This document shows positions 3,549-34,200 of a DNA stretch of 36,148 nt, one piece after another. The stretch spans positions 52,846 through 88,993 of the forward strand of contig PS015290.1 of assembly GCA_048213135.1 (NCBI GenBank), in the 5' to 3' direction. The translations under genes were made by a program, and so were the position numbers. This DNA is from Reclinomonas americana ATCC 50394 (lineage: Eukaryota). The number at the start of each line of letters is the position of its first letter. Position 1 is the first letter of the stretch. The notes beneath the pieces were generated by a model, which was not told the origin of the DNA, searched no databases, and was given only the letters and a program-made list of their open reading frames with translations.

Positions 3549-5256
3549 CACTCTCTCTTGCCTTCTCTGTCTGCCTCCCTCTGTGTCACCCTCCACATTT
3601 CCCAAGGTGCTTGCAACGATTGCTTTTCATCTGTTATGAACAGATAGCTGCATTGACTTTCTCATTGTCGCCTTCCCTCCTTCCCTTTCTGCGTTGTGTC
3701 CTCATCTCTTTCCCATTCCTTCCTCTCCCCCCTCGCAGAACGCGACGGTACCCTCGACAAGAAAAACGTACAGAAACTCAAAATCGTCCGCCAGCAAGTG
3801 CAGCAGCTCACCGAAGAAGGCGTGGTGCAACCGTTGCGTCCCGCCCCCCCCCCCCCCATCTCCTTCTATTCCTCCACCCTGTATCCTACTCACCCCACTC
3901 AACACAGTGGCGCAGCCGGTCGCGCACCTTCAGTGGCTGGTCCTCGTCCGGCCACTGCTGGTGCACCGCAACCGCCACTGGGTGCGCAGCAACCCCCGAT
4001 GCCTGCCGGCCCTCCACCTATTCCCCCACACTTGTATCCGCGACCCACCGATTCCGTGTATTACCACCCGGTCTCCAATCCATTTGGTATGCCACCGGCG
4101 GGCATGCCGCAGCGGTACCACCCTCCGTCGGCCACGGTAATGCAGATTGCCGCAGCACAAATGCTTCAGCAGCAGCAGCAACAGCAGCAAATGATGATGG
4201 GTGAAGGGTTCCAGCCTCCACTACCGCCGGGCCCGCCACCCACACGAGTTGCGTCGCGGGTCTTCTCGCTTGTCTTCTGCCTCCGTTGCACTCATCGATC
4301 CTGCGCAGATGGATGGCGCTGGCGGTGACGACGACGACGACGATGACGAAGACGTGGAGGATCACGGCATCGGTGGTGATGATGATGATGATGACGACGA
4401 CGACAGCGAAGGCGACGACGAGGAGGATGGCGACGGCGGAGATGATGGCATGGGCGGTGGTGGTGCACCAGACAGTGATGGCGACGGCGGTAGTGACGAT
4501 GACGACGACGAGTTGGACTTGTCGGCGATTCCGATTCCCGATGAGTTCCTGGAGGGCACGGTGTGTCTATCCTTCCCTATCTTTCCTCAAGCTTTCACCT
4601 TGCTCACTCGTGGGTTTTCTCTCCTTCACAACAGTCTGCGGCTCGGCCACCACCACCACCACCACCACAGCCGCCTCGTCCGTACATGCCAGCTGGTGTA
4701 CCACAACCGCCACTGCCGCCAGGCGCATCGCCGATGATGATGATGATGGCACACCCCCACGCGCATCCACCTCACCATCACCTCCAGCACCAGCCGCCGT
4801 TGCCGCCAGGCCCACCACCAGCCGGTCTTCTGCGCCCTCCCATGCCTGCTGGAGGTGGACCACCACCACCTCCCCAGCAACAGCAGCCAGGGATGATGAT
4901 GCGACAGCCTCCGCTTCCTCCCGGACCCATTCCACCGCACCTGCAGCCGGCTGGTATGCCGTACGGCATGCCGCCAGGGCCCATGATGATGATGGGAGCT
5001 CGTCCTCCGCCGGCTCAGCCACCGCTTCCTCCCATGCCACCACCAGCGCACTTGATTGAGGAGCAGCGCAGAAAGGAGGCGCTGGAGGCCGGACGTGTGG
5101 TCACCAAGACGCAGGTCGTGGCCGCGCCGACCATGAACGAGTTCACCGCCAAGCTCAAGCAGCAGCAGGGCAAGTTGCTGGCCGGCACGCAGATTATTCC
5201 GTCGACGGCGTCGGCGGCGGGGTCCACGAAGGCGGCGTCGTTGCCGTCCGCGGCAG
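2295..5256 (+). CDS. WBP11: WW domain-binding protein 11 (WBP11/SIPP1/plant ELF5-like) splicing factor, multi-exon and incomplete
   Basis: Exons 2295-2302 and 2422-2478 give MGRKYTNKTKQGKMLNPTDAFR, the WBP11 N-terminal GK.(M/L)NPTD..R motif. Exon 3739-4247 has GTLDKK and DSVYYHPVSNPFGMPP, which resembles the ELF5 DSVYYHPTLNPTGAPP motif as I recall it. Exon 4309-4560 is acidic and exon 4635-5256 is Pro-rich. One internal exon and the 3' end were not found and probably lie in the gaps. Confidence 0.85.
2990..3160 (-). pseudogene. Fragment of two EGF/tenascin-like Cys-rich repeats, antisense inside a WBP11 intron
   Basis: CTGDYTNANCSCSPTATCTGHGTCK and CTGVYTNVSCNCSPSLTCSGNGTCKADG lie in different frames and are flanked by (GA)n tracts. 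Confidence 0.55.
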
Positions 5257-5958
5257 GTAAGCGGGATGAGGGGAAGGGAAAGGGGAAGAGAGAACAACTT
5301 GGGGAGTTAGGGAAAGCTTGGAGAGAATGTGCTTGACTGTTGTGCTCAAATTTCATCATGTTCTCAAGTTTTTCTTCCTCATGCTTCTTCCGTTCGTCAT
5401 CGCAGACATGGTTTTTTCTTTCTTCATCGCCCTCCCTGTCCGTTTTGCTTCTTCCTCTCTTTCTTCTCCTTCTTTTTCCTGTCTTCTTCTTCTTCGTTCT
5501 CTCCTCCTCTTCTGTCATTTTACCTTTTCCTTATCTCTTTCTTTCTTTGCCTTCTCCTCCCCTCTTCTTCTTTCTTCTTTCTTTCATCTTTTTTGTTCTT
5601 CATCTCCTCGCTGTCCTTCTTCTTCTCTTTCTCTCTAACACTTGTTCTGCCTTCGTCTGTCGTTAATTGCCTTCCCTCATCCGTTCTCTCGGACTTCTCT
5701 TGTGTCTCGCTTGTGTCCCTCCGTTGTTCTCTCTCCTTTCGCCCCCATTCTGTCTTCCCCCTTGTCTTCCCCCTTGTCTTCCCCTCATGCTCTTCCTNNN
5801 NNNNNNNNNNNNNNNNNAGGTAAAAATGAAGAATGAGGAGAGATATTTATGATATCTTGCCTGATTGGTCATGATTGTGACGGTCGGCGAAGTGCACATC
5901 ACCAATTGTCGGACACTGACTTTCGAGGCACGCGACGAGAGAAGACCACCTCCAGTGA

Positions 5959-8900
5959 ATGACAGAGTTGCGTGCGCGCACACACACTCTCCTTCTCCCT
6001 CCTTCTCCCTCTCCACTCACTCTTCTCTCTCTATACACAGAGCACGGGACACTCTTGTCACGCTCCTCGGCAGTGACTCATCGCGCTCACTTCCGCGAAT
6101 CTCCGAGCTGCTGCACGCGAACCCTGCACTGCTCACTGCCACTCTCCACAAGGGCCGCCACCAGACGCTGCTGCACCTGCTCGCACGCCACGCACGCGTC
6201 GATGTGTGGACGCACGTGGTCCGCCCAATGCTCCTCGCGCACTCGCTCGCTCGCCAGCTCTGTGCGCCACCGATGTGCACGGACTGACTCCGATGCATGT
6301 GGCGGCACGATACGGGCGCGCGGACGATGCCGGCGTGGTGGCAATGCTGCAGGAGATGGTGGACATGTGTCCGGAGGTACTGCGTGTTCGGGGTCCGACT
6401 GCGGCCGAGTATGCGCGCGTTCGCGGCAATCGGCGCATGGGAGCTGTGCTGGAGGCGATGGTGCCGCAGCAGGACGAGGGCGATGGGCAGGAGTCGCCGC
6501 CAGAATTCAAGGTCGAATTGATGGAGACGGCGAGCCGAAGGGGAGGTGAGTGGTGGGAGAAGGTGGCTGCATGAAGGCGTGCGAGGCCCTCACCTCCTTC
6601 AGCAGTTGCGGCCAGTCGGTATTCGCGGCACAGTCCTGAGTGGAAGGCGGCGAACACGGTGCAGGGGCGAGTGGCGCAACTGGAGCGCGAGGTGGCGGAG
6701 CTGCGGGCGGAACGAGGTGCGAAGAGAGATTGAGGGGAGGGTGGAGGCAACGGGTGACTGACCGCGTGCTGCAGATACGCTGCTGGACGATCGTCTGCGG
6801 GAGCTCAAGGTGGCGACCGACACGACCATGAGGCTGACGGAGAGTCAGCGGGAGGTGGAGACACTGAAGGTGTGTGGACTGCACAACAACTCCAGCTGTT
6901 TGTTATTTTCTCACCTCTTGTGCAGAAATCGATGGAGCGGCTGGAACGCCAGAACCAGCGACTGCAAGACAAGCTGAGAAAGTGTGCCAGTGAGACAGGT
7001 AAACACGTACTGCGCGGGTGCGGCACGACTAAATTCGGCACGTGACTTACCGCGAGTGCACACAGTGAACCGTGATGCCTTGCTGCACACGCTGTGGCGC
7101 GAGGTGCAGTTCTACGAACAAGAAATGGCTCCACTACTGGCCCCCGATGGTGAGCACGCCACTGCTGCAGCAGGCTATATACAGAAGACTCACTCGGCAA
7201 GCAGAGAGCGACGAGGAAACTCGCCGAGTGTGTCAATTGCTGCAAGAGCAAATTCGCGAGGCACTTGGACGCGCTCCGGAAGAGCCGTTCGTGCCAACAA
7301 CCGTGCCGTTGCCAGATGCACTCGAAGAGAAGGACGACGACGAGAAGGAGCAGGAGGAGAAGGAGAACGAGGAGCCAGCAGTGGAGCGCGTGGACCACCT
7401 GCTGAAAGAGTGCCGACAGCTGGGACCGGCTGCGCGAAAACGCATGAAGCAGGCCGTGGAGAGGAAGAACAAGAAGGAGGAGGAGGGGGAGGGGGAGCAG
7501 GTGGAGGGGCGAGCGGCGGAGGCCATGCGGATGATGCGCAACGAGGCCAGGGTGGTCGCCGAGAGAGTTGCGTCGAGGAAAAGGGAAAAGGGGGAAAGGG
7601 GGAATGGAATGGGAGAAGGAGAAGGGGGGAGAAGGGGGCACAGAGAACCGGGGTATGGAAAGGGGACGGGAAAAGCCGACGGTTGAAACGAAGAAGGAAG
7701 CGAAGGGGAAGGTGCAGAAGGAAAGGGAAGACACGGAAAAGCAACAGGGAGAAAACGAAGAGGCAACGGAAGAGAAATGGGGCAAGGAAATGGGGACAGA
7801 AAAGGGGGCAGGAATGGAAAGTGAAAAGAGATCAAGGAAGGAGGCATGGAGAAAGGAGGGGACGGGAAACGAACAAGGAAGAGAAGAGGACGGGAAAATG
7901 AGGAAGGAATAGAATGGGGGAGGGATAGATGAAACGGTCAGGGAGGGGGCATCACTGACAACAGCCTCTCACTCTCCTCGTCGCTCTACCATTCATTCCC
8001 CACCACACAGCTCACCGCCCAGCGTCGTGCCCTCCTGCAAGTTACGCAAGCCGACAGTGAGCTGGCCACGCAGCTGAGCGCCGCCGATCAGGCCCACGAG
8101 GCGGNNNNNNNNNNNNNNNNNNNNNNNNNNNNNNNNNNNNNNNNNNNNNNNNNNNNNNNNNNNNNNNNNNNNNNNNNNNNNNNNNNNNNNNNNNNNNNNN
8201 NNNNNNNNNNNNNNNNNNNNNNNNNNNNNNNNNNNNNNNNNNNNNNNNNNNNNNNNNNNNNNNNNNNNNNNNNNNNNNNNNNNNNNNNNNNNNNNNNNNN
8301 NNNNNNNNNNNNNNNNNNNNNNNNNNNNNNNNNNNNNNNNNNNNNNNNNNNNNNNNNNNNNNNNNNNNNNNNNNNNNNNNNNNNNNNNNNNNNNNNNNNN
8401 NNNNNNNNNNNNNNNNNNNNNNNNNNNNNNNNNNNNNNNNNNNNNNNNNNNNNNNNNNNNNNNNNNNNNNNNNNNNNNNNNNNNNNNNNNNNNNNNNNNN
8501 NNNNNNNNNNNNNNNNNNNNNNNNNNNNNNNNNNNNNNNNNNNNNNNNNNNNNNNNNNNNNNNNNNNNNNNNNNNNNNNNNNNNNNNNNNNNNNNNNNNN
8601 NNNNNNNNNNNNNNNNNNNNNNNNNNNNNNNNNNNNNNNNNNNNNNNNNNNNNNNNNNNNNNNNNNNNNNNNNNNNNNNNNNNNNNNNNNNNNNNNNNNN
8701 NNNNNNNNNNNNNNNNNNNNNNNNNNNNNNNNNNNNNNNNNNNNNNNNNNNNNNNNNNNNNNNNNNNNNNNNNNNNNNNNNNNNNNNNNNNNNNNNNNNN
8801 NNNNNNNNNNNNNNNNNNNNNNNNNNNNNNNNNNNNNNNNNNNNNNNNNNNNNNNNNNNNNNNNNNNNNNNNNNNNNNNNNNNNNNNNNNNNNNNNNNNN

Positions 8901-11900
8901 NNNNNNNNNNNNNNNNNNNNNNNNNNNNNNNNNNNNCCAGCAACACGGCGGAGCGCGACCCGCCACAGCTGGCCGCTGTGCAGGCGACGCTGCGATTTGC
9001 CGCCGCCGCAGAGCACGCCAGGCTGACGATGGAGCCTGAGCGGTTGCTGGCGTGTGGCGACAGCGGCGAGTGGGAGGCACTGAGTGACGCTTGTCGGTAT
9101 GAGGTGGATGTGAGTCGCCGGCGCGCCAGAGACCTGGAGGAGCAGTGTCGGAGGGCGCGCCAGTTGGTTCGGCAGTTGGTGGAGGATGCCAGGGCGGAGA
9201 GGGAGGATCTCGTGAGGAGGTTGAGGAGGAATGCAGGTGCNNNNNNNNNNNNNNNNNNNNNNNNNNNNNNNNNNNNNNNNNNNNNNNNNNNNNNNNNNNN
9301 NNNNNNNNNNNNNNNNNNNNNNNNNNNNNNNNNNNNNNNNNNNNNNNNNNNNNNNNNNNNNNNNNNNNNNNNNNNNNNNNNNNNNNNNNNNNNNNNNNNN
9401 NNNNNNNNNNNNNNNNNNNNNNNNNNNNNNNNNNNNNNNNNNNNNNNNNNNNNNNNNNNNNNNNNNNNNNNNNNNNNNNNNNNNNNNNNNNNNNNNNNNN
9501 NNNNNNNNNNNNNNNNNNNNNNNNNNNNNNNNNNNNNNNNNNNNNNNNNNNNNNNNNNNNNNNNNNNNNNNNNNNNNNNNNNNNNNNNNNNNNNNNNNNN
9601 NNNNNNNNNNNNNNNNNNNNNNNNNNNNNNNNNNNNNNNNNNNNNNNNNNNNNNNNNNNNNNNNNNNNNNNNNNNNNNNNNNNNNNNNNNNNNNNNNNNN
9701 NNNNNNNNNNNNNNNNNNNNNNNNNNNNNNNNNNNNNNNNNNNNNNNNNNNNNNNNNNNNNNNNNNNNNNNNNNNNNNNNNNNNNNNNNNNNNNNNNNNN
9801 NNNNNNNNNNNNNNNNNNNNNNNNNNNNNNNNNNNNNNNNNNNNNNNNNNNNNNNNNNNNNNNNNNNNNNNNNNNNNNNNNNNNNNNNNNNNNNNNNNNN
9901 NNNNNNNNNNNNNNNNNNNNNNNNNNNNNNNNNNNNNNNNNNNNNNNNNNNNNNNNNNNNNNNNNNNNNNNGGGGGCAAGGGAAAGGGAAAGAGGAGGGG
10001 GAGTTGGAGAAAAGAAGGAGGGTGAGGGAGAGAAAAGCAAGAGAGAAAAGTGCTTGACAAGAAATGACATGGAGACAAGAAAACATGCAAGAGAAATTGC
10101 GGAAAAGGAGAAAAAGCGAGAGAGGAAGAAAGAAAGAACAAAGATTGTGACTGGAATGCCAGAGAGAAAACAGGGATTGCAGGTAGCACGGCAGGAAAGG
10201 GAGAAGCAAGGATACAGATACGACAGAACGAGGAAGTGCATCAAGACAACTGTCGCTTGTTTGTTGGTGAATGAAATGTTGTTGAAGTAAGATTAGTTGG
10301 TGACAGGAACAGATGAAGAAAAGTGAGACACAGAAAGAACAGATGTGGAGACAACAAGAAGAGGAAGGTGAAGATGACATAATGCAGAGAGGGGAAACGA
10401 AGAGGATGATGGGAGAGAACGAGACGCAAACGCGCGACAACGAATACCTGCGAGGAGACCAAGATGATCGTGAGGAGAGAGAGAGAGAGAGAGAGAGGCA
10501 CGACCAGACAACACTGAGAAGAGAAGTCCTGACACCCTCTTCCCCTCCCATCACCGCAGCGGTGCACGAGCTCCTCCAACAAGAGTCGTGGAACCTCCGC
10601 CTCGCGCGACGACAGTACGGACAAGCCGCCACGCAGCTCCGCACACGCGCCGACAAGATCGAGCGCGTGGTGCTGCCGGCCGCCGAGTGGTTCCGCGAGA
10701 CCACGGCACGCCTGCNNNNNNNNNNNNNNNNNNNNNNNNNNNNNNNNNNNNNNNNNNNNNNNNNNNNNNNNNNNNNNNNNNNNNNNNNNNNNNNNNNNNN
10801 NNNNNNNNNNNNNNNNNNNNNNNNNNNNNNNNNNNNNNNNNNNNNNNNNNNNNNNNNNNNNNNNNNNNNNNNNNNNNNNNNNNNNNNNNNNNNNNNNNNN
10901 NNNNNNNNNNNNNNNNNNNNNNNNNNNNNNNNNNNNNNNNNNNNNNNNNNNNNNNNNNNNNNNNNNNNNNNNNNNNNNNNNNNNNNNNNNNNNNNNNNNN
11001 NNNNNNNNNNNNNNNNNNNNNNNNNNNNNNNNNNNNNNNNNNNNNNNNNNNNNNNNNNNNNNNNNNNNNNNNNNNNNNNNNNNNNNNNNNNNNNNNNNNN
11101 NNNNNNNNNNNNNNNNNNNNNNNNNNNNNNACCGCGAGAGCCAGCACGTCGCCACGCAGTGGTGGCACGACAACATGCACGAGGGGCAGCGTGTGCGCGA
11201 GGCCGTGCAGGTGGCGTGGGAGCGTGCGCTGCGCGAGATATCGACGCGCACCCGCCGCTACCTGGTGTTCCGTCGGCGTGCCGCCATGCTCGAGGTCGAG
11301 TGCGAGGAGTTGCAGCTGGCCGGCCTGCAGGCGGATCGGCGCATGCGCGTGCAAGAGCTGGAGACGGTGCGACAGCAAATGTACGAGGCGGCGAGCGACG
11401 TGCGGGAATGGGATCGGCTGCTGGTGGAGCTCGGGGCGTGTCTCGGCAAGGATGAGGAGACGGCGCGGGGGGAGGGCATGGCCGTGCGCAGTCACATTGT
11501 GCAGGTGCAGTTCTGCAGTGCGGCGGGGAGGCCACCGGCGGAGGTCATGGGGGATTGTAAGTGGCAANNNNNNNNNNNNNNNNNNNNNNNNNNNNNNNNN
11601 NNNNNNNNNNNNNNNNNNNNNNNNNNNNNNNNNNNNNNNNNNNNNNNNNNNNNNNNNNNNNNNNNNNNNNNNNNNNNNNNNNNNNNNNNNNNNNNNNNNN
11701 NNNNNNNNNNNNNNNNNNNNNNNNNNNNNNNNNNNNNNNNNNNNNNNNNNNNNNNNNNNNNNNNNNNNNNNNNNNNNNNNNNNNNNNNNNNNNNNNNNNN
11801 NNNNNNNNNNNNNNNNNNNNNNNNNNNNNNNNNNNNNNNNNNNNNNNNNNNNNNNNNNNNNNNNNNNNNCGGGGATGAAAGGGGGATGAAAGGGGAAGGG

Positions 11901-11916
11901 GTAAAAGGGGAAGGAA

Positions 11917-11968
<52 letters not shown>

Positions 11969-13067: not shown

Positions 13068-13115
13068 AAGAGGAGGAGGAGCGAAGGGGAGAGTAAAGTA
13101 GCGAACAAAATGTGG

Positions 13116-13336
13116 TCAGTCTTCAATGTTGATTTCGAAGCGCTCGTACATGGCCGCCGTGGTGACGCCCTCCAGTTCGGCGAGCTTTCCCAGGAGTGCT
13201 TGACCGGTGTCCTGGGCAGGGGGGAGAAGGAGGGAGGAACGGCGGAAGGGGGGATTAGAAGGAGAAGAGTGGGAGGGAGGGAGGGAGGACGGCACAAGCA
13301 GGAGCATGAAGATGGAAAGGCGAAAGAGGAGTGACG

Positions 13337-13397
<61 letters not shown>

Positions 13398-13903: not shown

Positions 13904-13982
13904 CGGCCTACTCGCGATCGTCGACGTCTGGGAGAGGGTGCAGAGAGCGCCAACACCCCCATAATGCTCTGACATGAAGACA

Positions 13983-17774: not shown

Positions 17775-18501
17775 GCAGCAGGCTTCTGCTGCCGCTGTCG
17801 GTGAGCACAGAGAGAGTAACCGCATATGCCGCGAGGCAATCCTCTCTTGCTCCCGACAATCACTCGCCCAATGAACAACATGCTCCCAACGAAAATGTGG
17901 ATTGTGTATTGCGATCATCGAAATCGTCGCCCGCTCACTCTCCCGGAGGCGGGGACTTGAAACGGGCGGGCGACTCGGGCGTGATGCTCCGCATCGTGTC
18001 CCGCAGGCCGTAGCGAGCGGCGCTGTGGTTGGGGAAAGGAGTGAGACGGGAGTGGTAAAGGAAGTGTGGCAGACAAGCGCGTCGAATGGAAGGTTAAAAT
18101 GAGCGAGAGTCGAAAGAGAGAGAGAGAGAGAGAGCAGAGCGCATAGGAGAGAGAAGAAGCGATCACTCAAGCGGAAGGAAAGCCAAGCTGAATAATGAGC
18201 AAGACTCTAAAGCGTGAGAAAGAGAGCAGAACGAAACCACGTGCACAATACGAAGAAACTGAATGCCAAGGTGATCGACGAGTAAGAATTAAGAGTGAGA
18301 AAGAGAGCAGAACAACTTGTGCTCGGCAAAGCGATAGAATGGCAGATTGAACACTGCGCAAGCTCACAGTAAAAGAGACAGCCAGCGAGAGAGAGAACTC
18401 AATAAAACGATGCGAACACATCAAGCGGGCAAACTCCTAAAGAAGAGAAGAGAACGCAAAGCAGAACAATGAGTGCAAGACAAAGCAATAGTGCGGCAGG
18501 T

Positions 18502-19632
18502 TTAACGATGAACGGGCTCCCATAGCAAGTGAGTGCGAGCGCACGTGATAACAACAAGGCAGAATGCCAGGCAGCGGGAAACAGAATGCAAGACAACAAA
18601 GACAGACAACCAGAGACAAGACGGACGAGTGTTCAGCAACCTCCCCTTTCCACCACGCAACTCCAAGCTATCCGTCAACAAGCACGCAGGAATGACGTAA
18701 TCCCCATCGCCCAATCGATCCCCTCCACTCGACGACGGCGACTCGGGCAATGACGACGACGACGACGCGCCACCAGCCGCACCCTCCTCCGCAGCCGCCG
18801 AGCTCTTCTTCCTCAAAAACGACGGCACGAGCTTCTTGAAGGAGAACGTGGCCTTCTTCTCCTCCTCCGCCTCCACCAGCTGCTCGACGTGCGCCACCGA
18901 GTCGCGCACCTTGTGCACAAATGTCTCCAGTGTGTCCACCTGCGCGTACGAGGACTCCACAAAGGGCAGGGTGGCGGCGAGGTGTGGCAGGTGCTCGTTG
19001 AGGAGCTCGTCGTTGACTTGCTCGGTGGCGGTGATCTCGTTGAGGTGGTTGGCCACGCGGGTGAGCAGCAGTTCGATGCGGGAGATGGCGGCCTGGGAGA
19101 TGAGGGAGAGGGGAGGGAGAAGGGAAGAGAAGGGCGAGGGGAAGGGAGGGTGATGAGGGAAGAGAAGGGAGGGAAGGAAGAAGGGAGTGAGTGAGTGAGA
19201 GTGAGTGAGGGAGGGAGGGAGGGAGTGAGTGAGTGAGTGAGTGAATGAGTGAGTGAGTGAGTGAGTGAGTGAGTGAGTGAGTGAGTGAGTGAGTGAGTGA
19301 GTGAGTGAGTGAGTGAGAGAGAGAGTGAGTGAGTGAGGGAGTGAGTGAGTGAGTGAGTGAGTGAGTGAGTGAGTGAATGAGTGAGTGAGTGATTGAGTGA
19401 GTGAGTGAGTGAGTGAGTGAGTGAGTGAGTGAGTGAGTGAGTGAGTGAGTGAGTGAGTGAGTGAGCGAGTGAGCGAGTGAGAGAGAGAGTGAGAGAACGT
19501 GTGTGTGATTGTGTGTGAGTGAGCTCACACAACTGCTGCCTCTGCTGTGCGCGCTGCATGCAGGACGAAGGCGGCAAGCTCTTGTGCACCACGCTCAAGA
19601 GCGCCTGCTGGCAAGGGCTCCGGTTGCTGCAT
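18502..19632 (-). CDS. BLOC1S4: BLOC-1 subunit 4 (cappuccino)-like coiled-coil protein
   Basis: Exon 1 is about 19531-19632 and exon 2 starts at 19092. SYAQVDTLETFVHKVRDSVAHVEQLVEAEE...FKKLVPSFL resembles the cappuccino (F/Y)..ID.LE.FV..V...V...EE.V..AE pattern. The true 3' end is uncertain. Confidence 0.6.
19185..19495. repeat. Long (GAGT)n/(ACTC)n microsatellite in intron 1 of the BLOC1S4-like gene
   Basis: About 300 nt of nearly pure gagt tetramers. Confidence 0.95.
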
Positions 19633-20842: not shown

Positions 20843-21349
20843 CTACCAGCCGCCACGCGACTTGGGGTCTCCCGGCAGCCAGCCAGTGGGTGGTGGCTTG
20901 CTAAAGTCACCGTACGCATCCAGAAACTCGTCCGCAGGCATCCACTGCAGCGGAGACAGGAGCGACTGCAAGCGAGCATTCAGTTGCGCCTCGGTGCACG
21001 GTACACGCGTCTGCATCGAGTGATGATCCGAGTGCTCATGAATCAGCACCAACTCGGGCGGAATGGGCAAGTGCTGCGGAAGAATGTACACGCGCGGGTT
21101 CCCCTCGAAACGCGACAGAATGTCGACAAAATTGGGGCCCCACGGCCGCAACGACATGCCATTCGGCCGCACAAAAAAGTCGCCAACACTCGGGTGGATG
21201 AGCCCGTCCGCAGAGTCCATCACAAAGTCAAAGTTGCGGCTGTTCTTGGCTCGCTGGCGCGCAAACTCGCGCAAACTGACGGTGCCCGTGTTCTGGATGC
21301 GGTACAGCGTGAGGGGCAACTTGTCCACGAAGCGCACAAGTCGTGTCAT
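20843..21349 (-). CDS. Tse2-like ADP-ribosyltransferase toxin-domain protein (168 aa, intronless CDS)
   Basis: LPLTLYRIQN...V.LRE, DGLIHP, RPNGMSLRP, VY.LP....IP.ELVLIHEHSDHHSMQ and LNARL match my recollection of the eukaryotic ADPRTs_Tse2 family. A probable 57-nt GT-AG 5' UTR intron lies at 21361-21417. Confidence 0.7.
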   Translation of the reverse strand: MTRLVRFVDKLPLTLYRIQNTGTVSLREFARQRAKNSRNFDFVMDSADGLIHPSVGDFFVRPNGMSLRPWGPNFVDILSRFEGNPRVYILPQHLPIPPELVLIHEHSDHHSMQTRVPCTEAQLNARLQSLLSPLQWMPADEFLDAYGDFSKPPPTGWLPGDPKSRGGW

Positions 21350-21817
21350 CCCTTCCACGTCTGCGCAAGAGTGAGAAGTGGAGTGAAGACGAAGAAGGAG
21401 AAGCAATGAGCTCTCACCGCCAGCAGAAACGCAAGAAACGGAGGTGGGACAGACGTTCCAATGCCACAGCGTCGTTTTCGCTCGTCAGCCTCTCGACTGT
21501 TAACCTCGGCATCTCCTTGCCACTGAGCCTTGGAACTGCAGCAGGCTTCATTTCTCATTCATTGAGCGAGCTGAAATCCCTCCACAGCAGCACCGTCTTC
21601 CTCTCGGTGCATGCATATGCATGGGAAGCCCTCTGCACCACCCTCCTGATCTCCGCTGAGCATGCAGCAGCGAGATAGCTGATGTTGACCCTGTTTGGAC
21701 CATCTCTCTTGTTCTCACTGAAGCAGTGAGACCAATGCCATGCCATCCCTCTCTTGTAAGGAGAATGCAAAGTATCCACCTGTTCCTCTCTTTCTCTCTC
21801 TCTTCCTCGCTGTATCT

Positions 21818-22504: not shown

Positions 22505-25500
22505 AGCAACGGAGAGGTAATCGTTGACGATCACATCACGAAAATGCCGCCGCACTGTACTCAACCGCGGTATGCAGGGACGAGAGAATGCTGGTGCTGG
22601 CGAGGTGTACACGGTGTTTGACGACAAGAGTGTGTACCTGAAGCCGTCGCCGTGGACTCTGTCGCCCTCGATGACGCCGCGCATCGCCAATGATCAGGAG
22701 GTACGTCACGGTGCCTGTGCTATTTTCCTTCCCCGCCTTTTCTCACTTGCTTCTGTCCCACACAGCGCCAAGTGGTGCGGTTGCGTGAGAGCCGGTACAT
22801 TGACCCCATGCTGCGATCCATGTCGTCGTTGCTGGATGTGGCCGACTTGCAGGTACCTTGTTTGTGTGTGTGTCTGTTATCCTGCGGAGCATAACACCGT
22901 GAAACCCGCAACGCAGACGGTGACCAAGAAGCTGAGTGACTTGATGGAGTCGCACCACACGCGAGCATTTGTGCGTCGCCGCGGACGCGGTGCGGAGGTT
23001 GTTTCGCAACTGGCCGAGCAGAAGGGCCGTGACTTTGGCGAGCAGTATGCAGGTATGTTGAGAACACCAAGTTGACAGTCTCCAGATGGTATTATCTCAC
23101 GGCTGGCCGCACAGCTCAAACCGAGGACGCTGCGCTCACCAAGCCGCGTGTCTTGTCCATGTATTACATGCGTTACATTCGCACACGCGAGTGCAAACGC
23201 CGACTGTTGTCGCTGCTCAACTACTTCCGGAGTGTGGAGAAACGACTCTTGCGCGACAGCCAGTCAACCATGTCACAGAAGAAGTTGCGCAGCCACTGTC
23301 GCCGCGTACTTGGATGCCACGCGTTGTATTTAACCTGCGCTACGTTGCACCCACGCAGGGGCGCATCATCTTCCACAGCGGGATTCGAGCAAGACCTCGG
23401 TGCGTACACATCGGGCTTACGATTCCGCCCCTTCACTCCTTCGCTCACTCACTGTCTACCCTCCTCAGTCGGCATCATGCAAGACGAACAGGGTGCGAGT
23501 GGCAAGAATGCACAGTCACGACTGCGATCCAACGACACCAGCTGCGACATGTACACGACAAATGCGGACGACAGCAGCATCCAAATCAGCGACAACAACG
23601 ACGTGTTTATCATGTACGAGGCGGCGCTGGAGGACATGTCCAGGCTGGAAGACGAGCTGCTGAATGTTGGCAGCCTGTACATCAAGGCCCGCTCGGACGC
23701 ACTCGAGCGTGACGACGAGTTGAAGGCCGATTGCATCGAGGTGCGCCTGCTGCGAGTCCATTACTTTTCTCCGCTTCGCGTGCTCACTCTCTTCACTCTG
23801 TTCACACACACAAGATGGATCGCATGCGGGTGCTGGAGGACATTTACCACTTTGAGTTTGACTTTTCTGAGGCGAAGCGACGCCTGCTGGATTCGTACCT
23901 GGAGGCGTACGAGCATGTGGAGAGCCTGGCTGACCAGAGCAGCCTGGCACAAATCGTGAGCACGTCGTGGTGTATTGGGTGATGTGTGTGTGTTGCGAAT
24001 GGTGTTGCCTCACTCATTGTGTCGCGGTGTAGATTCTCGACATTGTTGCCCTGCGTCCGCGGTACGACCTGCAATCCGAGTACTTCCACACCAGCTACCA
24101 GACGCACATTACTGCGCTGGAGTTCCATCACAAGTTGCGGCGCAGAGGAATGAGCGTGGCACCATTTCGCGCAACAGTACTCATCCGTGGTGACTCGTAG
24201 GCTGTTGCGCGCTATCATTGCGCAGCAAATTGCAGAGGAGAATCGCCTGGCCGTCGCCATTAACCAGCAGCTGACAAAGCAGGCTGATGAGCGGTGCGCA
24301 AGCGTCTCGCTCTATCACATTGATTGTTCCTTGGCTCATTGAATTTTGCTCGCAGTGACCGCAAGTCGGAGCGCATGTGCCGCCCACGTCTCAAGGGGCA
24401 ATCGCTCCCGTTCACGCTGCTCCCCGACACCACTAGAGTTGGCCTGTTCGACTTTTACCAGACGCTGGGTGTCGTTGCGTCGTGGAACGACAAAATGAGG
24501 AGATCCGTGTGTGGTGTACATGCACTCACCAACTCGCGCTGCAGGTGCAACACTTGCCGGCGATCCTGAACACGGTCTCCGCCGAGATTGTCACTGACTT
24601 CCAGTTGGAGCGCCCTCTGGCCATCTCCACCGTGCAAGCCGTGTTGTTTGAGTGCGCGTTGGCCGAGTGGCGCTACGTGACGCAGGAGGAGCACACGCAC
24701 AAGCGCACAAGCATGCCCAAGGACAGCGTGCCGCTGGTGAGTCTCAGCCGCCCGCCAAACGAGTGCATAGATGCCAACTTCTCACAAATGTGCATTCAGA
24801 GGCTGGCAGCATCGCCATTCCTGCGCGACGGCATGAGCATGGAATCACTGGCAAAGCATGGCGCCTCACAGGTTTGGCCAGTGGAGATGCCGTCGTTTTG
24901 TGTTGCTCGTGACGATACTCACGCAACCGAGCCGTGCACACACAGATGGAAATCGTATTTGCGCGCAAGCTGCAGTCCGTCGACACGTCCTCGGGCTTCC
25001 CAGTCAGCGATGGTGGCTTCTCGCTCAAGGTGCGTGTCTGTTGCGCCATGTTGGTGCGTGCTCTTGGCTCACTGTTCGTATATGTCTCCAGAATCCACCG
25101 CGCGCCGCTGCATTCCAGGCCTACAGCAATGTGCTTGAGCTGCTGCTCTTGCAGTACAACACACTCGACTCTCTCCTCGAATCCGGTACGTGTTTGCGCA
25201 CAGTCTCTTGCCACGTGCTTGTCTGACTGTGTGCTGTCTACAGAGATCCTCATGAACACGTACAAGGCGCAAGCGTTGCCGGCCGGTCGTGCGCTCATGT
25301 CGTTACACTTGCCGCCGATTCCGTTTGGCGCACCGCTGGGTCACGAGTCCGTCGAAGAGGTGATGTGTGGCGGCCGTCATCGTCCTGTTATTGTTGTTGT
25401 GACGCTGGAATCTGACGTGACTGTACGCGACGCAGGTGGAAGAGCCGGTCTCCGCGGAGCTGGCCGATTTTGTACACGAGCCGTTGTGCATGTTGCACGT

Positions 25501-28500
25501 GCAGGAGTTCGACCCGGAGATGCTCGGCACGGATTTGGGCTCGCTGGACGATCTTGTGCATGCGGTGCAAGCGGGACCCAGCGCTTTCCGTCGAGTGTGT
25601 CGCCTCGAAATCGCCAACAAGAACCTCATTCTCAGTGCCGTCCGCTTCAACTTTTTGTCGCTGGACATGTTTGTGTGCCAGTACCGCAACGCCGAGATCG
25701 TCAGTCGACCTGTCCCGCGACCTGAGGGTGCGATGGCTGTGTGTGTACGCCGCCCTTCACATGACAAATTCGCAAACTCACCTTTTTTTTTCGTCGTCAG
25801 GTCCTGTCATTGACGACATGTCGGTATTGCAAGTCACCGAAACCGAACTCGAGGACGCCATTGCTCGGCTGCAGAACAACTTTTTCAGCCTGACTGTGCT
25901 CCGCCTCAACGCACGCCGGCAAGTACACAATGAATTCCGCCGCCGGTCCCAGCAGATCAAGTCGTCGGCGTTGACACCAGACGACGCCAGCGCTGGCCTG
26001 TACGATCTCAAGGTGCGAATATGTATATGTGTGTGTGCGCGCCTGTGTTGCTCCGTGCAACGATTTCTCATCACATGGACCACTGCAGGTTGAGCTGCTC
26101 GATCTGTACATTCGGACTCTGCTGGAGGAGTGCGCGCCGATGTTCCTCAAGATGCAGTCGGCCATGGTTGCCGATCGCATGCGTCTGCTGTTGAGGAACA
26201 GCCCGTCAAGCATCGCCAACTTCCGGGTCAGCCGCAATCGACTGGGTGCGCGCGCACGCAGTCTGTACGACGCTGGCGGTCCGTGTTTTCCTCACCGCGT
26301 TTTTTTGTGTTTGCTTGTTCCGCAGGCGACCCGCCACCTGAGGATCACACCGGTGCCTCGATGCTGACCATCGATGGTCTCGTGGCCAATGTGTGGCTGC
26401 TGCCGTCGCGCATCGATGTCGTGGAAATGTTCAAGTTGCGCCGTGTTTTTTATGTCTGTCACAGACGCCTCCGTGTACTCATGCGTGTGTTTGGCGTGCA
26501 GTGAACATGGACCAGACATCCAGCGCGCTGAGCTGAAGCACGTGGTGGAGATTCAACAGAGCCTGCACAACATTGTGCTGCTGCTGGTGGTGACCAATAA
26601 GCTGCAGGTGTGTAGACACACATGCATGCCGCCACATGTCGCTGTCGTCACTCACCATCCGTGTTTGCGTAACAGGCGTCGGCAACGGACAGCTTCTTGC
26701 ACTCGAGTGCAGCAGATGGCGTGGCGCACAGCCTGCAGAAATTGCGCAACGAACTCGGTGCGACATGACTCTCCACTAATTATTTGACAGAGTGTTGTGG
26801 CTTGGACTCATTCATTCTGTTCCGCCTCGCAGAGCACGTGCAAGAGCCGCTGAGTCCACTCTGTGTGACGGCCTTCCTGCGCGCCAAGTACCGCTTCATG
26901 TACCTCAAGTTTGTGCTGACGCTGCGCAGCTTGCTGGATGTGATGTTGACCAAGGTACTGCGTGGCAAGGGCAGTTGGTTGTACACAGGTTTCGGCTTCT
27001 CACTCGCTGGTGCTCTGCAGGGCAATGTGGCGGCCGCCAAGCAAGTTCAGAGCCTCCTGCAAGAACTCATCTCGCCAACAGTTCCTCGGCGCGTTATCCC
27101 CTATCACGTGCCAGAACTTAAGGTCTGTGTGCTCTCCTGCCGCCTTGAGTGTGATGCGTGCACACTGGTGCTGAAACGTGCGCACACGTGTGGCAGACCA
27201 TGCACGAGCTCGAACCCAAGTTTATTGTCGACTTCCGCCTGCTGGACACGTATGCGGTGCCGTTCTTTGGCGCCCGTGTCGACACTCCGCTCCGCCTGCT
27301 GATTGGCTGCCTGCCGCACTTGGCCGAGAGCGACCGTAACTACTTTTCGGCGGAGGAGATGGCTGTTGCGTCGTCACTTGAGTACTTGTCTTACCGCCAC
27401 ATTCGCTCATGCGTGTTGAACGGCACAGCTGGACTCGCTGCTGGAGACATTCCTCTCCGAGGAGAAGATCTATGCCATCAGCCAGTCGGAGCAGGCCGTG
27501 GATCGGCTGACGCAGTTCCTCTCGGTCTCCATCACCATGGGCCAGCTGCGTGCACAGTACATGAGCCGCATGGCCGCCGTCATGCCTCCCTCGGTTTGTC
27601 TCCCGCGTCTTTGCTTTCGTTCCTTGTTATGCGTGCTGACGCGAGAATCGAACTGGTGTCGCAGGACGACAGCAATCGTCTTGTGCAACTGCACCAGGCC
27701 TACAAGTCGAGCATACTACCACGCTCTCGCGCGCTGTTTGAGAAATTCCGTGGCCAGAAGAGTGACGACTTTTATACGAGTTGCGTTGCGAATGACGTGC
27801 CACCAATCGCATCACCCTGTTGCGCTGACAACGAAAACGCAGCGCACGAGTGCCTGCAGAAAATCATCTTGCGCAAGACGCTGACCGAGTGGGTGAGTGC
27901 GGGAACGCCCGTGCATGCGCTCGAATGCACAAGAGTTGCTCAAAACAATGTGGGGTGCAGGTGCTTCGTCTCGGACAAGTGATTATTCTACAGCAGGAGC
28001 TCAACAAGCTGATGATTGTGGACTCGTCGGACGAAATTCGTTCCATGTACTCGGTGCTCTCGTCGGAAATCGACCGCGCGGCCAAGGCGACGCCCGTGGA
28101 CGATAGTGCGTGTGCATGTGCATGTCTTATAACAGCCTTTCTCGGCGTGCTGACCATGTCTGATCGATCGCAGCTGTCAGTGAGGACGGCACGCCCAGCG
28201 TGCAAGGCGCATCGCGAACTGGACCGCAATCCACCGGGGTGTGTAGCACTCATGTGCACACAGACACACTGCCGCCGCCTCGCTCCACTCACGTGCAAAT
28301 ACTCTCCCCTTCAGGGTCGTGCCACGCCGCCGACGTCGGCCGAGGAAGATGCAGCGGCGGCGAAACTGACGATCGTACGCCAGTTCCTTGTGCAGCTAAC
28401 AGTTTCGTTGTTGTGTCGCGTGTGGCAAGGGGGGGAAAGGCACTGAATGATTGCGCAGGGCAATCTGTCACGAGTCAATCTGCCGAGTGGCGAAAGCTTC

Positions 28501-28842
28501 CACGTTTCCGAGCGACACCTGCGCTCATGTGTATCCTTTTTTGCCAACCTTCCTTGTTGTTGATTGCTCGCCAGTTGGTAATTTGTCTGGTTCTCCTTGA
28601 CTTTACGCGTGCGCTTGCTCGACAGATTCGACAACTGGCCAGTCGTCTGTCGGTGTGGGAGACGGCGCAGGTACATACCTCTTCTTCTCTGTGGCGGAAC
28701 GTGCTCTTCCTAATGTCTTCACACGCAGACTGCCGAAAAGGATGTCACTCTGCAGCGGGCACTCGACAACATGAATGCCGACTTGCATCGGTTGGAGAAG
28801 AAGTTGGCTGTGGTCACTCTCCATCAGGCTGAAGACGAGGAG
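22505..28842 (+). CDS. CCDC162: Large CCDC162/DUF4549-like protein, at least 33 introns, both ends in gaps
   Basis: Phase-consistent chain of exons separated by 47-95-nt introns. The motifs LLSLLNYFRSVEKRL, FIMYEAALEDM..LEDELL.VGS.YI, DR..VLEDIY..E..F.EAKRRLLDSYLEAYEHV and LAQII.DIVA.RPRYDL...YF match CCDC162 as I recall it. Confidence 0.7.
28531..28625 (+). other. U12-type (minor spliceosome) GT-AG intron in the CCDC162-like gene
   Basis: Donor GTATCCTTTT at 28531, branch TCCTTGAC at 28594-28601 and acceptor CAG ending at 28625. Removal joins SERHLRSC|IRQLASRL in frame. Confidence 0.75.
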
Positions 28843-28947
28843 GTGAGGAGCGGCTTTGCGTGTCGCGAGCATGGAGTGGCACTCACCACCAGNNNNNNNN
28901 NNNNNNNNNNNNNNNNNNNNNNNNNNNNNNNNNNNNNNNNNNNNNNN

Positions 28948-30183
28948 TGCTCCTCTCCACCCTCCTCCTGTTCCTCCTGCTCCTCCTGCTGCTCTTGCTC
29001 CACCGCAGCAGCCGCCGCCGCCTTCACAGCGGCAGCCGAGGGCGACCGAATCTGCTCCGACACGGCCGGGTCACTGAGCTGCGTCAACGACTGCTCCACG
29101 TGCAGCAACTCAGCATCCCACTTTTGCCGCGTGGCATCCAGCGCACGAGCGTGCTGCATCTTCAGCTCGGTCCACTCGCGTTCACGGTCCCCCAACACCG
29201 CCTGCATTCACATGAGCCGCGAAAGAGACAAGACAAGAGAAAGAGAAAGAAATGACCTCGCGCTTCCGCTGCTCCAAGTCGCCACTCGTGTGCCTGCTCT
29301 GCTCTCGCTGCCGCTCCCAATCGGCGGCCTTTTGCAGAATACCCTTGGACAAGTCATGCAGCGCACTGACGCTGACCTCCACCTGCGTGATCCACTGCGA
29401 CGCGCTCTCTGCGTGCGCCTCCACTGCCGCTCGCAAATCGCCCACGGCATCACTCAGCAGCGGAAGTCGCGCAAAGTACTCGTCATCGCGACGAAGCTGC
29501 ACGTGAAGGAGTCAGAAACAGAGAGAGCAAGAGAGGCAGGGGAGAGGCAGGGGAGAGAGAGAGACCTCGTGCTCTCGCAGGATCTGCTTTGCCTCGAAAT
29601 CGGCGTGGTCTGAGAAGTTGAGTGCAAATGCCAGCAGGTGCCCCGCGTCTGTAACAGGAGAGAGGAGAGAGAGAGTGAGTGAGTGTGAGAGAGTGAAGGG
29701 AGGGAAGGGAGGGAAGGGAGGGAAGGGAGGGAAGGGAGGGAAGGGAATGAGTGAGTGAGTGAGTGAGTGAGTGAGTGAGTGAGTGAGTGAGTGAGTGAGT
29801 GAGTGAGTGAGAGAGAGTGAGTGAGCGAGTGAGTGAGTGAGAGAGTGTGTGAGTGAGTGAGTGAAAGAGAGAGAGAGGGAGAGAGTGACTGAGTGACTGA
29901 GTGAGTGAGTGAGGGTGAGTGAGAGAGAGAGAGGGAGGGAGGGAAGAGTGAGTGTGTGTGAGTGAGTGAATGAGTGAGTGTGTGTGCGTGTTGTCTATGA
30001 GAGAGAGAGTGTGTGTGTGTGTGTGTTTGTGAGTGAGAGAGTACGTTTGGCCGAGTCCTGCAATGACACACTCAGTGTCTCCAGAGGCACATACTCCACG
30101 ACATTGCCCGACGGCACTGCAGGCGATGACGCAGAGGAGGACGAGGAGGAAGCAGAGCTACTCAATGGCACAGCGGGCAACAT
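28948..30183 (-). CDS. BLOC1S5: BLOC-1 subunit 5 (muted)-like coiled-coil protein (3' end in a gap)
   Basis: Exons 30045-30183, 29566-29648, 29257-29496 and 29201 to the gap. HAGHLLAFALNFSDHADFEAKQILREHELRR aligns without gaps to the muted motif DLGEIHSRLLDHRPVIQGETRYFVKEFEEKR (recalled from memory). Intron 1 is a GAGT/GA-rich expansion. Confidence 0.55.
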
Positions 30184-30239
30184 CACACAAACAAAAGAGA
30201 CAAACACGCGCGCGAGTGTCTGTCTCTCATCTCACTCAC

Positions 30240-31155
30240 ATGCGCGTCTGCGTGCTCGTTGTTGCTCTTCTTGTGTGCGCTGTGTGCGTCACCGACGCAC
30301 TGCGCATCATGTCATACAACATCCGCTCCGGCTCCGACATCAACAACGCCTACAACATTACGCGCACAGGCGAGCAGGTGCGCCACTTAGGTGCCTCTCT
30401 GGTCGGCCTGCAAGAGGTCGACCAGTTGACCGCGCGACACGCAGGCGACGATCAACCGGCGATCTTGTCGCGTGTGTCGGGCCTTGCGCATGTGGCGTAC
30501 GGGCGAATGCGCGACTTTGAGGGCGGCGGATATGGCGTTGCGGTGTTGTCGGCGTTTCCGATTCTCGAACAACGTGTGTTTCATTACGCCCCGCCTGGCG
30601 GCAAACCAACTACGGTAAGCCATACATGACCAGCTAGCGTTTACATAACACGACAAAAGACGACTGATTTGTGTGCAGCCGGCGCAGTGTGCGGTGCCGG
30701 TGAGCAATGATTTCTGTCAGGGTGTTGTGGCGGTGCGCGTGCAGCCGGATGAGTTTGGTGGGCGTGACTTGTGGTTTGCGACGACGCATTTGGGGCTGGG
30801 CGGTGGCCAGTTCAATGAGACGGTGCAGTTGGTGGAGATGGTGCGCTCGTTGAGTGCCGACGGGAGTGTGCCGGTGGTGGTCACGGGCGATTTCAATAGT
30901 GTGCCCTCGGATGCCGACATTGCGGAGGTGATGAGCCGGGAGATGATTGATGTGTGGACGCAGTGTGGTGATGGCTCGGCGGGCTACACCTTCAACTCGG
31001 CCGTGCCGTCGGAGCGCATCGATTTCCACTTTATGGCGCGGAGCGGAAAAATGCGTGGTGATCCTGCTCGAGGTCTCGTGTGCTCCGGCGCCAAGGTGCC
31101 TGTCACGGAGGTCTCTGATCATCGGCCGGTGATTGCCGAGTACACGCTGCAATGA
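30240..31155 (+). CDS. Secreted endonuclease/exonuclease/phosphatase (EEP) family metal-dependent hydrolase, bacterial YbhP/ElsH-like
   Basis: Signal peptide followed by IMSYNI, GLQEVD, YGVAVLS.FPI, TTHLG, GDFN, RIDF and SDHRPV motifs. Exons 30240-30614 and 30679-31155. Confidence 0.9.
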
Positions 31156-31224
31156 ACAACGCTTTTGTATTCCACTGAAGAAGGGGAGAGGAAAGAGAGC
31201 AAAAAAAAATTGAGGGTCAATTGC

Positions 31225-34200
31225 TCAAGCCGTGGCGTTCTCCGTCAGTTGCGTGTCACTCTCATGCAACAGGTGCAGCCGCAGCATGCGCACGCCGCGA
31301 CCCGGCACCGTCAGCGTGATGCTGTCGTTGAAGGAGCCGAGATCGACGCGCGCCCACAAATCGCGCACCAGATATGTGTGACCGCCAGACGGCACCAGCA
31401 CATTGTAGTTTAGCGTGAGGCTCACGGGACTCGAGTTCTGCGAGTCAGAGTGGCAGGGGCATGAGACGGGGGTTAAAGAGGAGAGATTCTTTTGGGAAAG
31501 GGGTCACCTTGTTGAACAAGACCACGGCGTGCTGACCGTCGACCAATTGCTGTGCTCGGAGTGCGAGAGTGAGACACGGGGGGGAAAGGCGGAGGGTGGA
31601 GAGCACGGTGCACCTTGGACCAGATCTGCGTCGAGCCGTTGTCCACACGAATGTCACCGGCAACGCCGAGCTTGTCTTGGTTGATGGCAATCACCTGTTG
31701 AGAAACACCGAGAGAGGGGAAGGAGGGGTAAGAGAGAAGGAAGAGAGGGGGAAAGTGAGGGAAAGAGGGGAAGAGCAAAGGGGGAAGGAAAGAAAGAAGG
31801 GAAGGAAGGAGAAGGAGGGGTAAGAGAGGGGGAAAGGGGGAAGGAGGGGGAAGGAGGGGGAAGGAGGAGAAGAAGGTGGAGGAGAAGGGAGAGAGGGGGA
31901 AAGAGGGGGAAAGAGGGGGAAAGAGGGGGAGAGAAGGGAAGAGCAAAGTGTGAGAAACACATGAGAGAAAAAGAGCGCTACGACAGTACCTCGGGATTGG
32001 TGAGCACGAGGGTCGTGTTGCTGCGCGGATCCATGTTGACAACATCGTTGCCCTGCAAGCGTGCGACTGTAAATCAGCAGAGGAAAACATGAGCTGCTAA
32101 AGGAAGAGCAGGGGCGACGCAACGGCCAACAGCGGGGCATTCATCAGTGACCACAGCGACATGTGCGCCTGGGCAGCTGCAGGTGAAAGAGTGTGTCAGA
32201 GGAGACTTGCAGAGTAGTGCGATGGTACTCTTACTCGCCGGTCATGTTGCGATCGCCAAAGTCGCCGTTGCCAACCTGCACAGGATGTGAGTATGAAGCG
32301 TGCAGGAGAATAGCAACGAGAAGGCTCACCTCCAACATGTCGGGGTCGTTCCAGCCACCAGGGCCTGTCGCAGGGATGGAGAAGGGTGAGGGAAGGAGAG
32401 GAAGAGGGGGAAGAGAGGGGGAAGAGAGGGGGAAGGGAAGGGGGTGGAGAGGGGAAGAGAGGGGAAGAGAAGGGAAGAGAGGGGTAAGAGAGGGGGGTGA
32501 GGAGGGGGAAGAAAAGTGGAGGAGAGGGGGAAGNNNNNNNNNNNNNNNNNNNNNNNNNNNNNNNNNNNNNNNNNNNNNNNNNNNNNNNNNNNNNNNNNNN
32601 NNNNNNNNNNNNNNNNNNNNNNNNNNNNNNNNNNNNNNNNNNNNNNNNNNNNNNNNNNNNNNNNNNNNNNNNNNNNNNNNNNNNNNNNNNNNNNNNNNNN
32701 NNNNNNNNNNNNNNNNNNNNNNNNNNNNNNNNNNNNNNNNNNNNNNNNNNNNNNNNNNNNNNNNNNNNNNNNNNNNNNNNNNNNNNNNNNNNNNNNNNNN
32801 NNNNNNNNNNNNNNNNNNNNNNNNNNNNNNNNNNNNNNNNNNNNNNNNNNNNNNNNNNNNNNNNNNNNNNNNNNNNNNNNNNNNNNNNNNNNNNNNNNNN
32901 NNNNNNNNNNNNNNNNNNNNNNNNNNNNNNNNNNNNNNNNNNNNNNNNNNNNNNNNNNNNNNNNNNNNNNNNNNNNNNNNNNNNNNNNNNNNNNNNNNNN
33001 NNNNNNNNNNNNNNNNNNNNNNNNNNNNNNNNNNNNNNNNNNNNNNNNNNNNNNNNNNNNNNNNNNNNNNNNNNNNNNNNNNNNNNNNNNNNNNNNNNNN
33101 NNNNNNNNNNNNNNNNNNNNNNNNNNNNNNNNNNNNNNNNNNNNNNNNNNNNNNNAGGGGGAAGAGAGGGGGAAGAGAGGGGGAAAGAGGGAAGGGAGGT
33201 TCGAGATCAGAACAAGATAGAGGAAGGGGAAAGGAGAGCGAGAAGAGACTGAAGTAAGGAGGGGGAAGGGGAGAGAGAGAGAGAGAGGAAGGGGAGGGGA
33301 GGATGGAGAGTGACAGCACACACACAATACATATTGGCGAGCTCACCAGCGTACTTGCTGAGTCCACGCATGGAGTCGACAATCTGCAAATACATGACTT
33401 ACGTACTCCACACAACGAGAGAAAGTTAGCAGCGAAAGAGTCCCGCACCTGCACCATGCGGTCCCAGCTGTGAACGAGGCGTGAGTCATTACGCACACGC
33501 TTGTAAACTGGCACGCAAAACACGAACGCACCTGGCGTTGATGTCGCCAGTCGTGCGCCACGAGTTGCCTGTCGGAAAACCTTGAGCACCGAGACGCACA
33601 AAAGTGAACGGATGGCACAATCAACTCACCAACAGGCATCGCCCACGACCTGGTGGCAACGGAGAGAATGAATAAGCAAAAAGACGAGTAACAGGAAACT
33701 GTGGTTTTACGTCTCACCATGGCTGGTCGACACCTGTGCATCGTACAAGCAGTCAGACAGAAGGCTTCACAGTGACTTTCATCGCACATTCCACTCACCC
33801 CACTCGCACATCGAGAAGAAAATCGGACGACCACTGGCCAGCAGCGCGTCACGAATCTACGCGTGGCACAATGTTACACACACACGCACACATGTGCAAA
33901 CACACCACCGACAGTCGACACACCTTGGGATAGCGGTCACGCGGAGTCATGCCGTCCGTGTAGCACCCTGCCACAGCCACAACAAGGTCAGCAAAACGGC
34001 TTCTCCGCTCACCTGCGCTCTCCACAAGCGCAACGCAACAGTCGACCTTCAGGTAATCGACACCCTGCACGACAACAGGTGAGCGACGAGTGCAAAGCAG
34101 GCAACACCACGCACGCACAACACACCATGCCCGCAAACGTGTTGGCGTCCTTGGTCTCGTAGCCGTAGATGCCCGGTCGGCCCTGGCACGTCTTGTAGCC

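Follow-up and report, generated by a model that had tools for sequence, protein, structure and literature searches.

Human 5′ splice sites read in a shifted (+1) register were reportedly described by Roca and Krainer in 2009. According to the available part of PMC4856993, shifted, bulged and loop registers together account for 1.5-2.1% of human 5′ splice sites, and the U1 small nuclear RNA (snRNA) can bind away from the cut, whose position is set by U6; this is a precedent for register-shifted recognition. As far as the available portions of the sources go, 5′ splice sites (donors) of Mamiellophyceae follow the consensus AG/GTGCGT, where the slash marks the cut (PMC3879977, PMC2483917), donors can be sorted into AG//GUNNN and NN//GURAG classes (PMC11732430), and in Entamoeba the 5′ end of U1 has changed to match an atypical donor (10.1101/2022.06.08.495308). 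Here we analyze a stretch of 36,148 bases of the nuclear genome of the eukaryote Reclinomonas americana ATCC 50394 (contig PS015290.1), referred to below as the window. Its usual donor signal is GTG(A/C/T)G, with AG/GTGCGT as the main consensus, and a further 11 introns in four genes begin with GTTGCG.

These 11 hexamers all lie at the coordinates and on the strands given in the original prediction, an earlier reading of the same DNA from its sequence alone, and the further counts made there hold as well: the base at -1 is A at seven sites, C at two, T at two and G at none, T stands at +7 in eight, and five extend to GTTGCGTCG. Six of the 11 belong to a large plus-strand gene, where they are indeed 6 of 33 donors (32 complete introns and one donor that enters an assembly gap). 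Where about 82 donors in total were put there, our curated set holds 69, of which the large gene contributes 32, a GH27 alpha-galactosidase gene 25 and the rest of the window 12. Left out of this set were a U12-like donor (28531), an ambiguous one (6990), the candidates at 3833, 18661 and 19533, two donors of a kinase gene, and donors known only from gene-finder prediction. Besides the 11 GTTGCG donors, the set comprises 58 others, here called the main class (GTGAG 16, GTGCG 14, GTGTG 10, and 18 of other make-up).

Under independent positions, 0.096 GTTGCG donors would be expected among the 69, against 11 observed (Poisson p about 1e-19). Chance is excluded as their source, and a single weight matrix would rate these sites near-impossible (0.1 expected, 11 seen). 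On the sense strand of the four transcripts, GTTGCG serves as a donor at 11 of its 21 occurrences, as compared with 13 of 40 for GTGCG, 13 of 23 for GTGAG and 60 of 892 for any GT. G is found at +4 in 11/11 GTTGCG donors and 0/58 others, at +5 in 0/11 and 51/58, and at -1 in 0/11 and 55/58 (Fisher p 2e-10 for the last).

Beyond their first bases, the GTTGCG introns look like their neighbors. All 11 combine a GT 5′ end with an AG 3′ end, as U2-type introns do. U12-type identity was rejected, since an RTATCCTT donor and a TCCTTRAY branch site are both absent from every one of them. The short members measure 61-75 nt, where the main-class median is 67 nt; nine of the ten short introns have a branch-type CTNAY motif, at a distance of 14-21 nt from the 3′ end, a range similar to that of the main class; and GC content is ordinary. 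No excess of intron fold was found in the class (z 0.00 vs 0.11), nor a significant excess of open introns whose length is a multiple of three (3n; 3/8 vs 5/39, p 0.12). Support from frame or homology comes from a GH27 profile for two sites, from the open reading frame (ORF) for five and from a stop met on read-through for one (7567). Introns 23284, 27780 and 34039 are, as claimed, 3n and stop-free (75, 63 and 72 nt); of the three, GH27 homology fixes the last. We regard a second donor class as very probably real in this window. On the sequence evidence, it is a class of ordinary-looking GT-AG spliceosomal introns with a separate start signal, consensus A/GTTGCGTCG, making up about one donor in six.

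Like human shifted (+1) sites, the GTTGCG sites have GU followed by U at +3, a consensus lying one base downstream, and the cut at the GU. They differ from them in frequency, as one motif accounts for 11 of 69 donors here while all noncanonical human registers together make up 1.5-2.1% in the available text of PMC4856993. They also differ in pairing, because human shifted sites pair well with canonical U1 once shifted whereas GTTGCG sites do not, and their core is GCG rather than AAG. One extra U between the GU and the conserved G likens them to the +2/+3 bulge and asymmetric-loop registers of the same source; unlike in those registers, the exon side of GTTGCG sites is out of register, with no G at -1. 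The Mamiellophyceae consensus AG/GTGCGT has its counterpart in GTGCG, a main donor type here (14/69), which the GTTGCG class mirrors. In contrast to those intron-poor genomes, however, the window has more than two introns per kb, and the class goes unmentioned in the available portions of PMC3879977 and PMC2483917. As with the classes of PMC11732430, the donor consensus splits into discrete classes, yet main donors here bear both -1G and +5G, and the GTTGCG class bears neither and fits none of the classes in the part of that source available. Finally, a changed U1 5′ end such as we predict below has a precedent in Entamoeba, although the available part of 10.1101/2022.06.08.495308 concerns one U1 and one near-universal atypical site in an intron-poor genome, and the intron-rich genes here hold two classes of site side by side.

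A whole-word text search for GTTGCG or GUUGCG as a splice donor, judged among the matches listed by title and abstract, returned no paper on either. If the class holds genome-wide, it would be, as far as text searches show, the first case of a register-shifted donor type that forms a major class rather than a rarity. Gene finding and donor scoring for this lineage would then have to include a further donor model, the class would make a clear prediction on the 5′ end of U1, and the organism would allow the choice of the cut site to be studied in nature where the helix that first recognizes the intron stands out of register.

Two of the junctions can be placed by homology. The GH27 gene (31228-35104, minus strand) has more than 20 introns, yet its full model aligns almost gapless, at 546 bits over profile positions 37-395, with a bacterial-only profile that we built from the translated genes of 80 GH27 loci. 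About 20 ordinary donors of the gene are likewise homology-checked by this full-model alignment. A model using both GTTGCG donors scores 427.2 bits, and both junctions are gapless. At gcc/GTTGCGTCG (32053..32123, minus strand, 71 nt), APLLA/GND aligns to APLiaGnD; retention of the intron introduces stops and lowers the score to 312.8 bits, and the Pfam Melibiase_2 match stops exactly at the final exon residue before the intron. At act/GTTGCGTTG (33968..34039, minus strand, 72 nt), the split codon T/GG yields W, the profile consensus (YLKYDwC), where a downstream GTGAGC donor gives 411.5 bits with a nine-residue insert and retention gives 409.2 bits. Both motifs on which the original prediction had relied, YLKVD/WC and APLLA/GND, thus agree with the 80-locus profile, and Pfam searches of single GH27 exons agree wherever a match is reported. 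Short GH27 queries added nothing: a protein homologue search with one piece gave no match, and none was found in the PDB with a 47-aa read-through piece.

Two other readings of these sites were rejected. A GC-AG reading, GTT/GCG, in which the exon gains three bases, stays in frame at all six large-gene sites; at both GH27 junctions it would add an extra residue where the GT-donor model aligns gapless, as judged from that alignment and not from scores of its own. A sequencing error of G to T, with AGGTGCGT misread as AGTTGCGT, would shift the cut and break the GH27 frame. Elsewhere in the same gene, a GC-AG intron, ccg/GCGAGTAAG (32177-32238, minus strand), is needed for the frame, and the homology is lost if the GT 4 nt downstream serves as donor.

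The relation between the two donor classes is that of a displacement by one base. Positions -1 to +7 of the GTTGCG class align with positions -2 to +6 of the main class except for one G-to-T difference. The class -1 base resembles main-class -2 (A 27, T 14, C 10, G 7), and its +7 resembles main-class +6 (T in 32/58). When the flanks alone (-3 to -1 and +7 to +9) are placed on the main-class profile, the +1 register is better by 41.9 nats, and full sites score -146 nats shifted and -266 in register. Two GTTTG donors, at 24872 and 27594, keep G at -1 and at +5 and so behave as main-class variants. The description of the class as a shifted one is, as a sequence pattern, well supported.

The explanation that we favor, with a probability of about 0.5, is that the main signal AG/GTGCGT has been displaced by one base and is read by shifted pairing on a changed or variant U1. 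In our model, either U1 or a copy of it with a 5′ end matching GCGU would pair one base off the usual register, and the cut would then be placed at the first GU by later spliceosome steps involving U6, U5 and Prp8.

Several observations weigh against this explanation. Using the canonical U1 5′ end AUACUUACCUG (the 11-mer as printed in PMC4856993) in all registers, we obtained a mean of -0.95 kcal/mol for the GTTGCG sites, as compared with -7.21 for the other 58, and no stable duplex in any register; the best duplex falls in the +1 register at two of the 11 sites only. Thus, of the 0 and +1 registers proposed in the original prediction, neither is stable on canonical U1, and the shifted-register reading advanced there stands as a sequence pattern and is not supported as canonical U1 pairing. 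The core is also more uniform than a shift requires: it is GCG in 11/11, while +4 of main-class GTGNG donors is A in 16, C in 14 and T in 10 (p about 1e-5). A generic shift would be expected to yield GTTGAG and GTTGTG donors too, and all 11 have C. In addition, C at +8 (7/11) and G at +9 (10/11) form an extension that main-class GTGCG donors do not have. For three of the 11 introns, retention would leave the frame intact. Finally, the main-class figures are not fully independent, because donors were picked partly by consensus resemblance and by usual intron length.

Since no pairing of the canonical U1 5′ end with these sites is possible, we predict either a host U1 whose 5′ end is not AUACUUACCUG or a variant copy. 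The invariant GCG core and the conserved +8 and +9 likewise indicate a changed or variant snRNA 5′ end, which the original prediction had named as its second option. Taken as sequence evidence, the pattern points to an RNA 5′ end matching GCGU(CG), either in the host U1 or in a variant copy. A bolder proposal, which we hold to be possible though doubtful, is that the major spliceosome here uses two parallel intron-start codes, with a second U1-type RNA, or one non-canonical U1 in two registers, reading A/GUUGCGUCG at about one intron in six. If true, an RNA helix would lie one base away from the cleaved bond, and the genome would hold natural, genome-scale evidence that U1 marks a region in which later steps choose the first GU.

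Alternatively, a dedicated variant snRNA, such as a second U1 copy, could have a 5′ end complementary to GUUGCGUCG and read these sites in its own normal register, in parallel to the main U1. The motif is long enough for this (-1 to +9), its GCG core and its preferences at +8 and +9 are absent from main-class GTGCG donors, and canonical U1 lacks pairing here. We nevertheless consider it rather unlikely, as the flanks copy the main class slid by one base and snRNA genes gave 0 Rfam matches in the window. A variant derived from the main U1 by a single change would explain the flanks, so that this reading and that of shifted pairing would nearly merge. The failure of canonical U1 to pair would equally suit recognition without U1 pairing, by a protein that binds UUGCGUCG or by later U6 and U5 contacts alone. 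This is improbable in our judgment, since the whole pattern is offset by one base, exon side included, which is expected of a shifted RNA helix and not of a separate protein site.

Could the same U1 act in its usual register with one U (+2 or +3) bulged? GU(U)GCGU minus one U is exactly the main GUGCGU, and PMC4856993, in the part available, includes a +2/+3 bulge among the registers of human sites. The exon side would then stay in register, however, with AG before the cut, and the lack of G at -1 throughout the class (0/11 vs 55/58) argues against a simple bulged U. Canonical U1 also forms no stable duplex with these sites even when bulges are allowed, which leaves the bulge very improbable.

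The sites might also be artefacts of gene modelling, the true donors lying elsewhere or the segments not being introns at all. Several other GT or GC donors are in frame for every one of these introns, three of the introns are 3n and free of stops, and sites 7567 and 5967 are weakly fixed. Against this, GH27 homology makes two junctions base-exact, the frame depends on the removal of five introns, and one hexamer is met again and again at the usual intron length, where a nearby main-type in-frame donor is absent. We therefore regard an artefact as highly implausible. Barely credible is the last alternative, also raised in the original prediction, that the introns descend from a single inserted element through an introner-like wave of gain, GTTGCGTCG being the end conserved in the decayed copies: their 5′ ends are common over 9 nt, but in our comparison of introns within the window similarity is confined to these first nine bases, with cores (bases 10 to -7) at a mean of 7.93 within the class (45 pairs) vs 7.48 for other introns (903 pairs; p 0.26), and length, GC content, branch motif and fold are those of ordinary introns.

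The reading of the sites as true donors also draws on the large plus-strand gene (22572-28842), which we rebuilt by eye and then verified by translation. With 32 introns removed, a single stop-free ORF of 1342 codons results, and the 33rd donor enters a gap. The introns measure 58-95 nt and most have a CTCAC/CTGAC/CTCAT-type motif 12-31 nt before the AG, with the GTTGCG introns no different. Four of the six GTTGCG introns are required for the frame. If caa/GTTGCGGCG (24134..24200, 67 nt) is kept, a stop follows at codon 380; a branch-type CTCAT lies 17 nt from its 3′ end. Keeping gtc/GTTGCGTCG (24474..24544, 71 nt) leads to a stop at codon 460, and this intron was also recovered by a gene finder that knew donors only as GT (or penalised GC). 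For caa/GTTGCGCCG (26435..26501, 67 nt) the stop is at codon 894, and the acceptor was recovered without a donor model. For gct/GTTGCGTCG (27365..27428, 64 nt) it is at codon 1166; the in-frame alternatives are GC at 27362 and 27368 and remoter sites, and the nearest other in-frame GT would give a 151-nt intron.

The remaining two introns of this gene leave the frame open when kept. The first, gaa/GTTGCGCAG (23284..23358, plus strand, 75 nt), has ordinary length and acceptor; because it is 3n and stop-free, the ORF alone does not exclude its retention. Neither a CTNAY branch motif in it nor a main-type in-frame donor at the usual distance was found. The second, cga/GTTGCGTTG (27780..27842, plus strand, 63 nt), is also 3n and stop-free, and with the second GTTGCG, at 27785, as donor the frame is lost and a stop appears at codon 1173. 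A tandem GTTGC GTTGCG thus starts two introns of the class, at 27780-27790 (plus strand) and 34029-34039 (minus strand), both 3n and stop-free; in both, the frame is kept by the first GT only.

A donor-blind gene finder recovered 21/30 acceptors and 15/30 donors; half of the donors being missed, the ORF alone does not fix donors. A finder restricted to GT[AG]NG donors gave noisy models, and a self-training finder (191 introns, both strands) was discarded. Homologues of the gene were not found by a protein search with one exon, nor at E 0.001 or better with HMMER and a 97-aa exon, and there was no Atlas match of at least 0.9; the label "CCDC162-like", under which the gene had been introduced, is unconfirmed because these searches came back empty. 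The gene also carries a U12-type-looking intron (28531-28625, plus strand), with the donor tgt/GTATCCTTT and TCCTTGAC 24 nt before the 3′ AG. Its removal closes the last gap of the 1342-codon model. As far as can be judged from this one intron, it suggests that the organism keeps a minor spliceosome.

The other three plus-strand members lie in two genes. In a WBP11/NpwBP-like gene with an NpwBP Pfam match upstream, removal of cga/GTTGCGTCG (4248..4308, 61 nt) leaves an ORF open for 435-460 codons, and retention leads to a first stop at codon 170; paired with the same acceptor, the only other in-frame GT donors would make introns of 49 and 37 nt. In an ankyrin/coiled-coil gene, the first intron, aga/GTTGCGTGC (5967..6040, 74 nt), was read by eye. 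An ATG stands 9 nt before its donor, and its phase agrees with the ankyrin-like frame past 6040; as it rests on this start codon, it is the weakest of the 11. The third member, aga/GTTGCGTCG (7567..8010, 444 nt), belongs to the same gene, and read-through meets a stop. With six introns removed, including this one, the region 6258-8104 forms one ORF of 365 codons; an in-frame rival donor, agg/GTGGTC, lies 15 nt upstream of 7567. The frame is interrupted at 6217-6257 (plus strand), between the first ankyrin-type stretch and the second. We found no GT-AG intron that would restore it, and the cause may be an error in the assembly or an intron of an unusual kind.

Two further sites may extend the class. 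A candidate 12th donor, gga/GTTGCGTGG (18023..18661, minus strand), lies in a fifth gene, where it is in phase with a stop-terminated last exon and gives an ORF of 205 codons; an in-frame alternative, cac/GTGCGC at 18544, makes 18661 likely, not certain. A possible 13th, acc/GTTGCGTCC (3833..3907, plus strand, 75 nt), falls in the WBP11-like gene and has a branch-type CTCAC and a CAG acceptor, but the ORF is open with or without the intron, and the segment is ambiguous between class member and coding sequence. By its sequence, then, the class probably reaches at least one further gene through 18661, and 3833 is a possible member. In the gene of 18661, the first intron (19093-19533, minus strand) would start gca/GTTGTGTGA, with A at -1. 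This start equals the GTGTGT donor type shifted by one base, a possible GTTGTG donor at 19533, and the intron is nearly all (ACTC)n microsatellite.

The window contains 11 runs of N (4,279 bases). Among its 150 longest open frames, which were the input of the Pfam scan, we found WD40, WBP11/NpwBP-like, Swi5, nucleoside diphosphate kinase and GH27 alpha-galactosidase families, as well as an endonuclease/exonuclease/phosphatase gene and a Tse2-type ADP-ribosyltransferase frame. Long introns are few and packed with CT-rich low-complexity repeats (31695-31989, 32365-33346 and 34447-34752 on the minus strand; 5257-5797 on the plus strand), and assembly gaps are located inside long introns. The Tse2-type frame (20846-21484, minus strand) matches the Tse2 ADP-ribosyltransferase toxin family strongly (E 3.8e-23). 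Tse2 is a bacterial effector family, and the frame is apparently intronless amid intron-rich eukaryotic genes.

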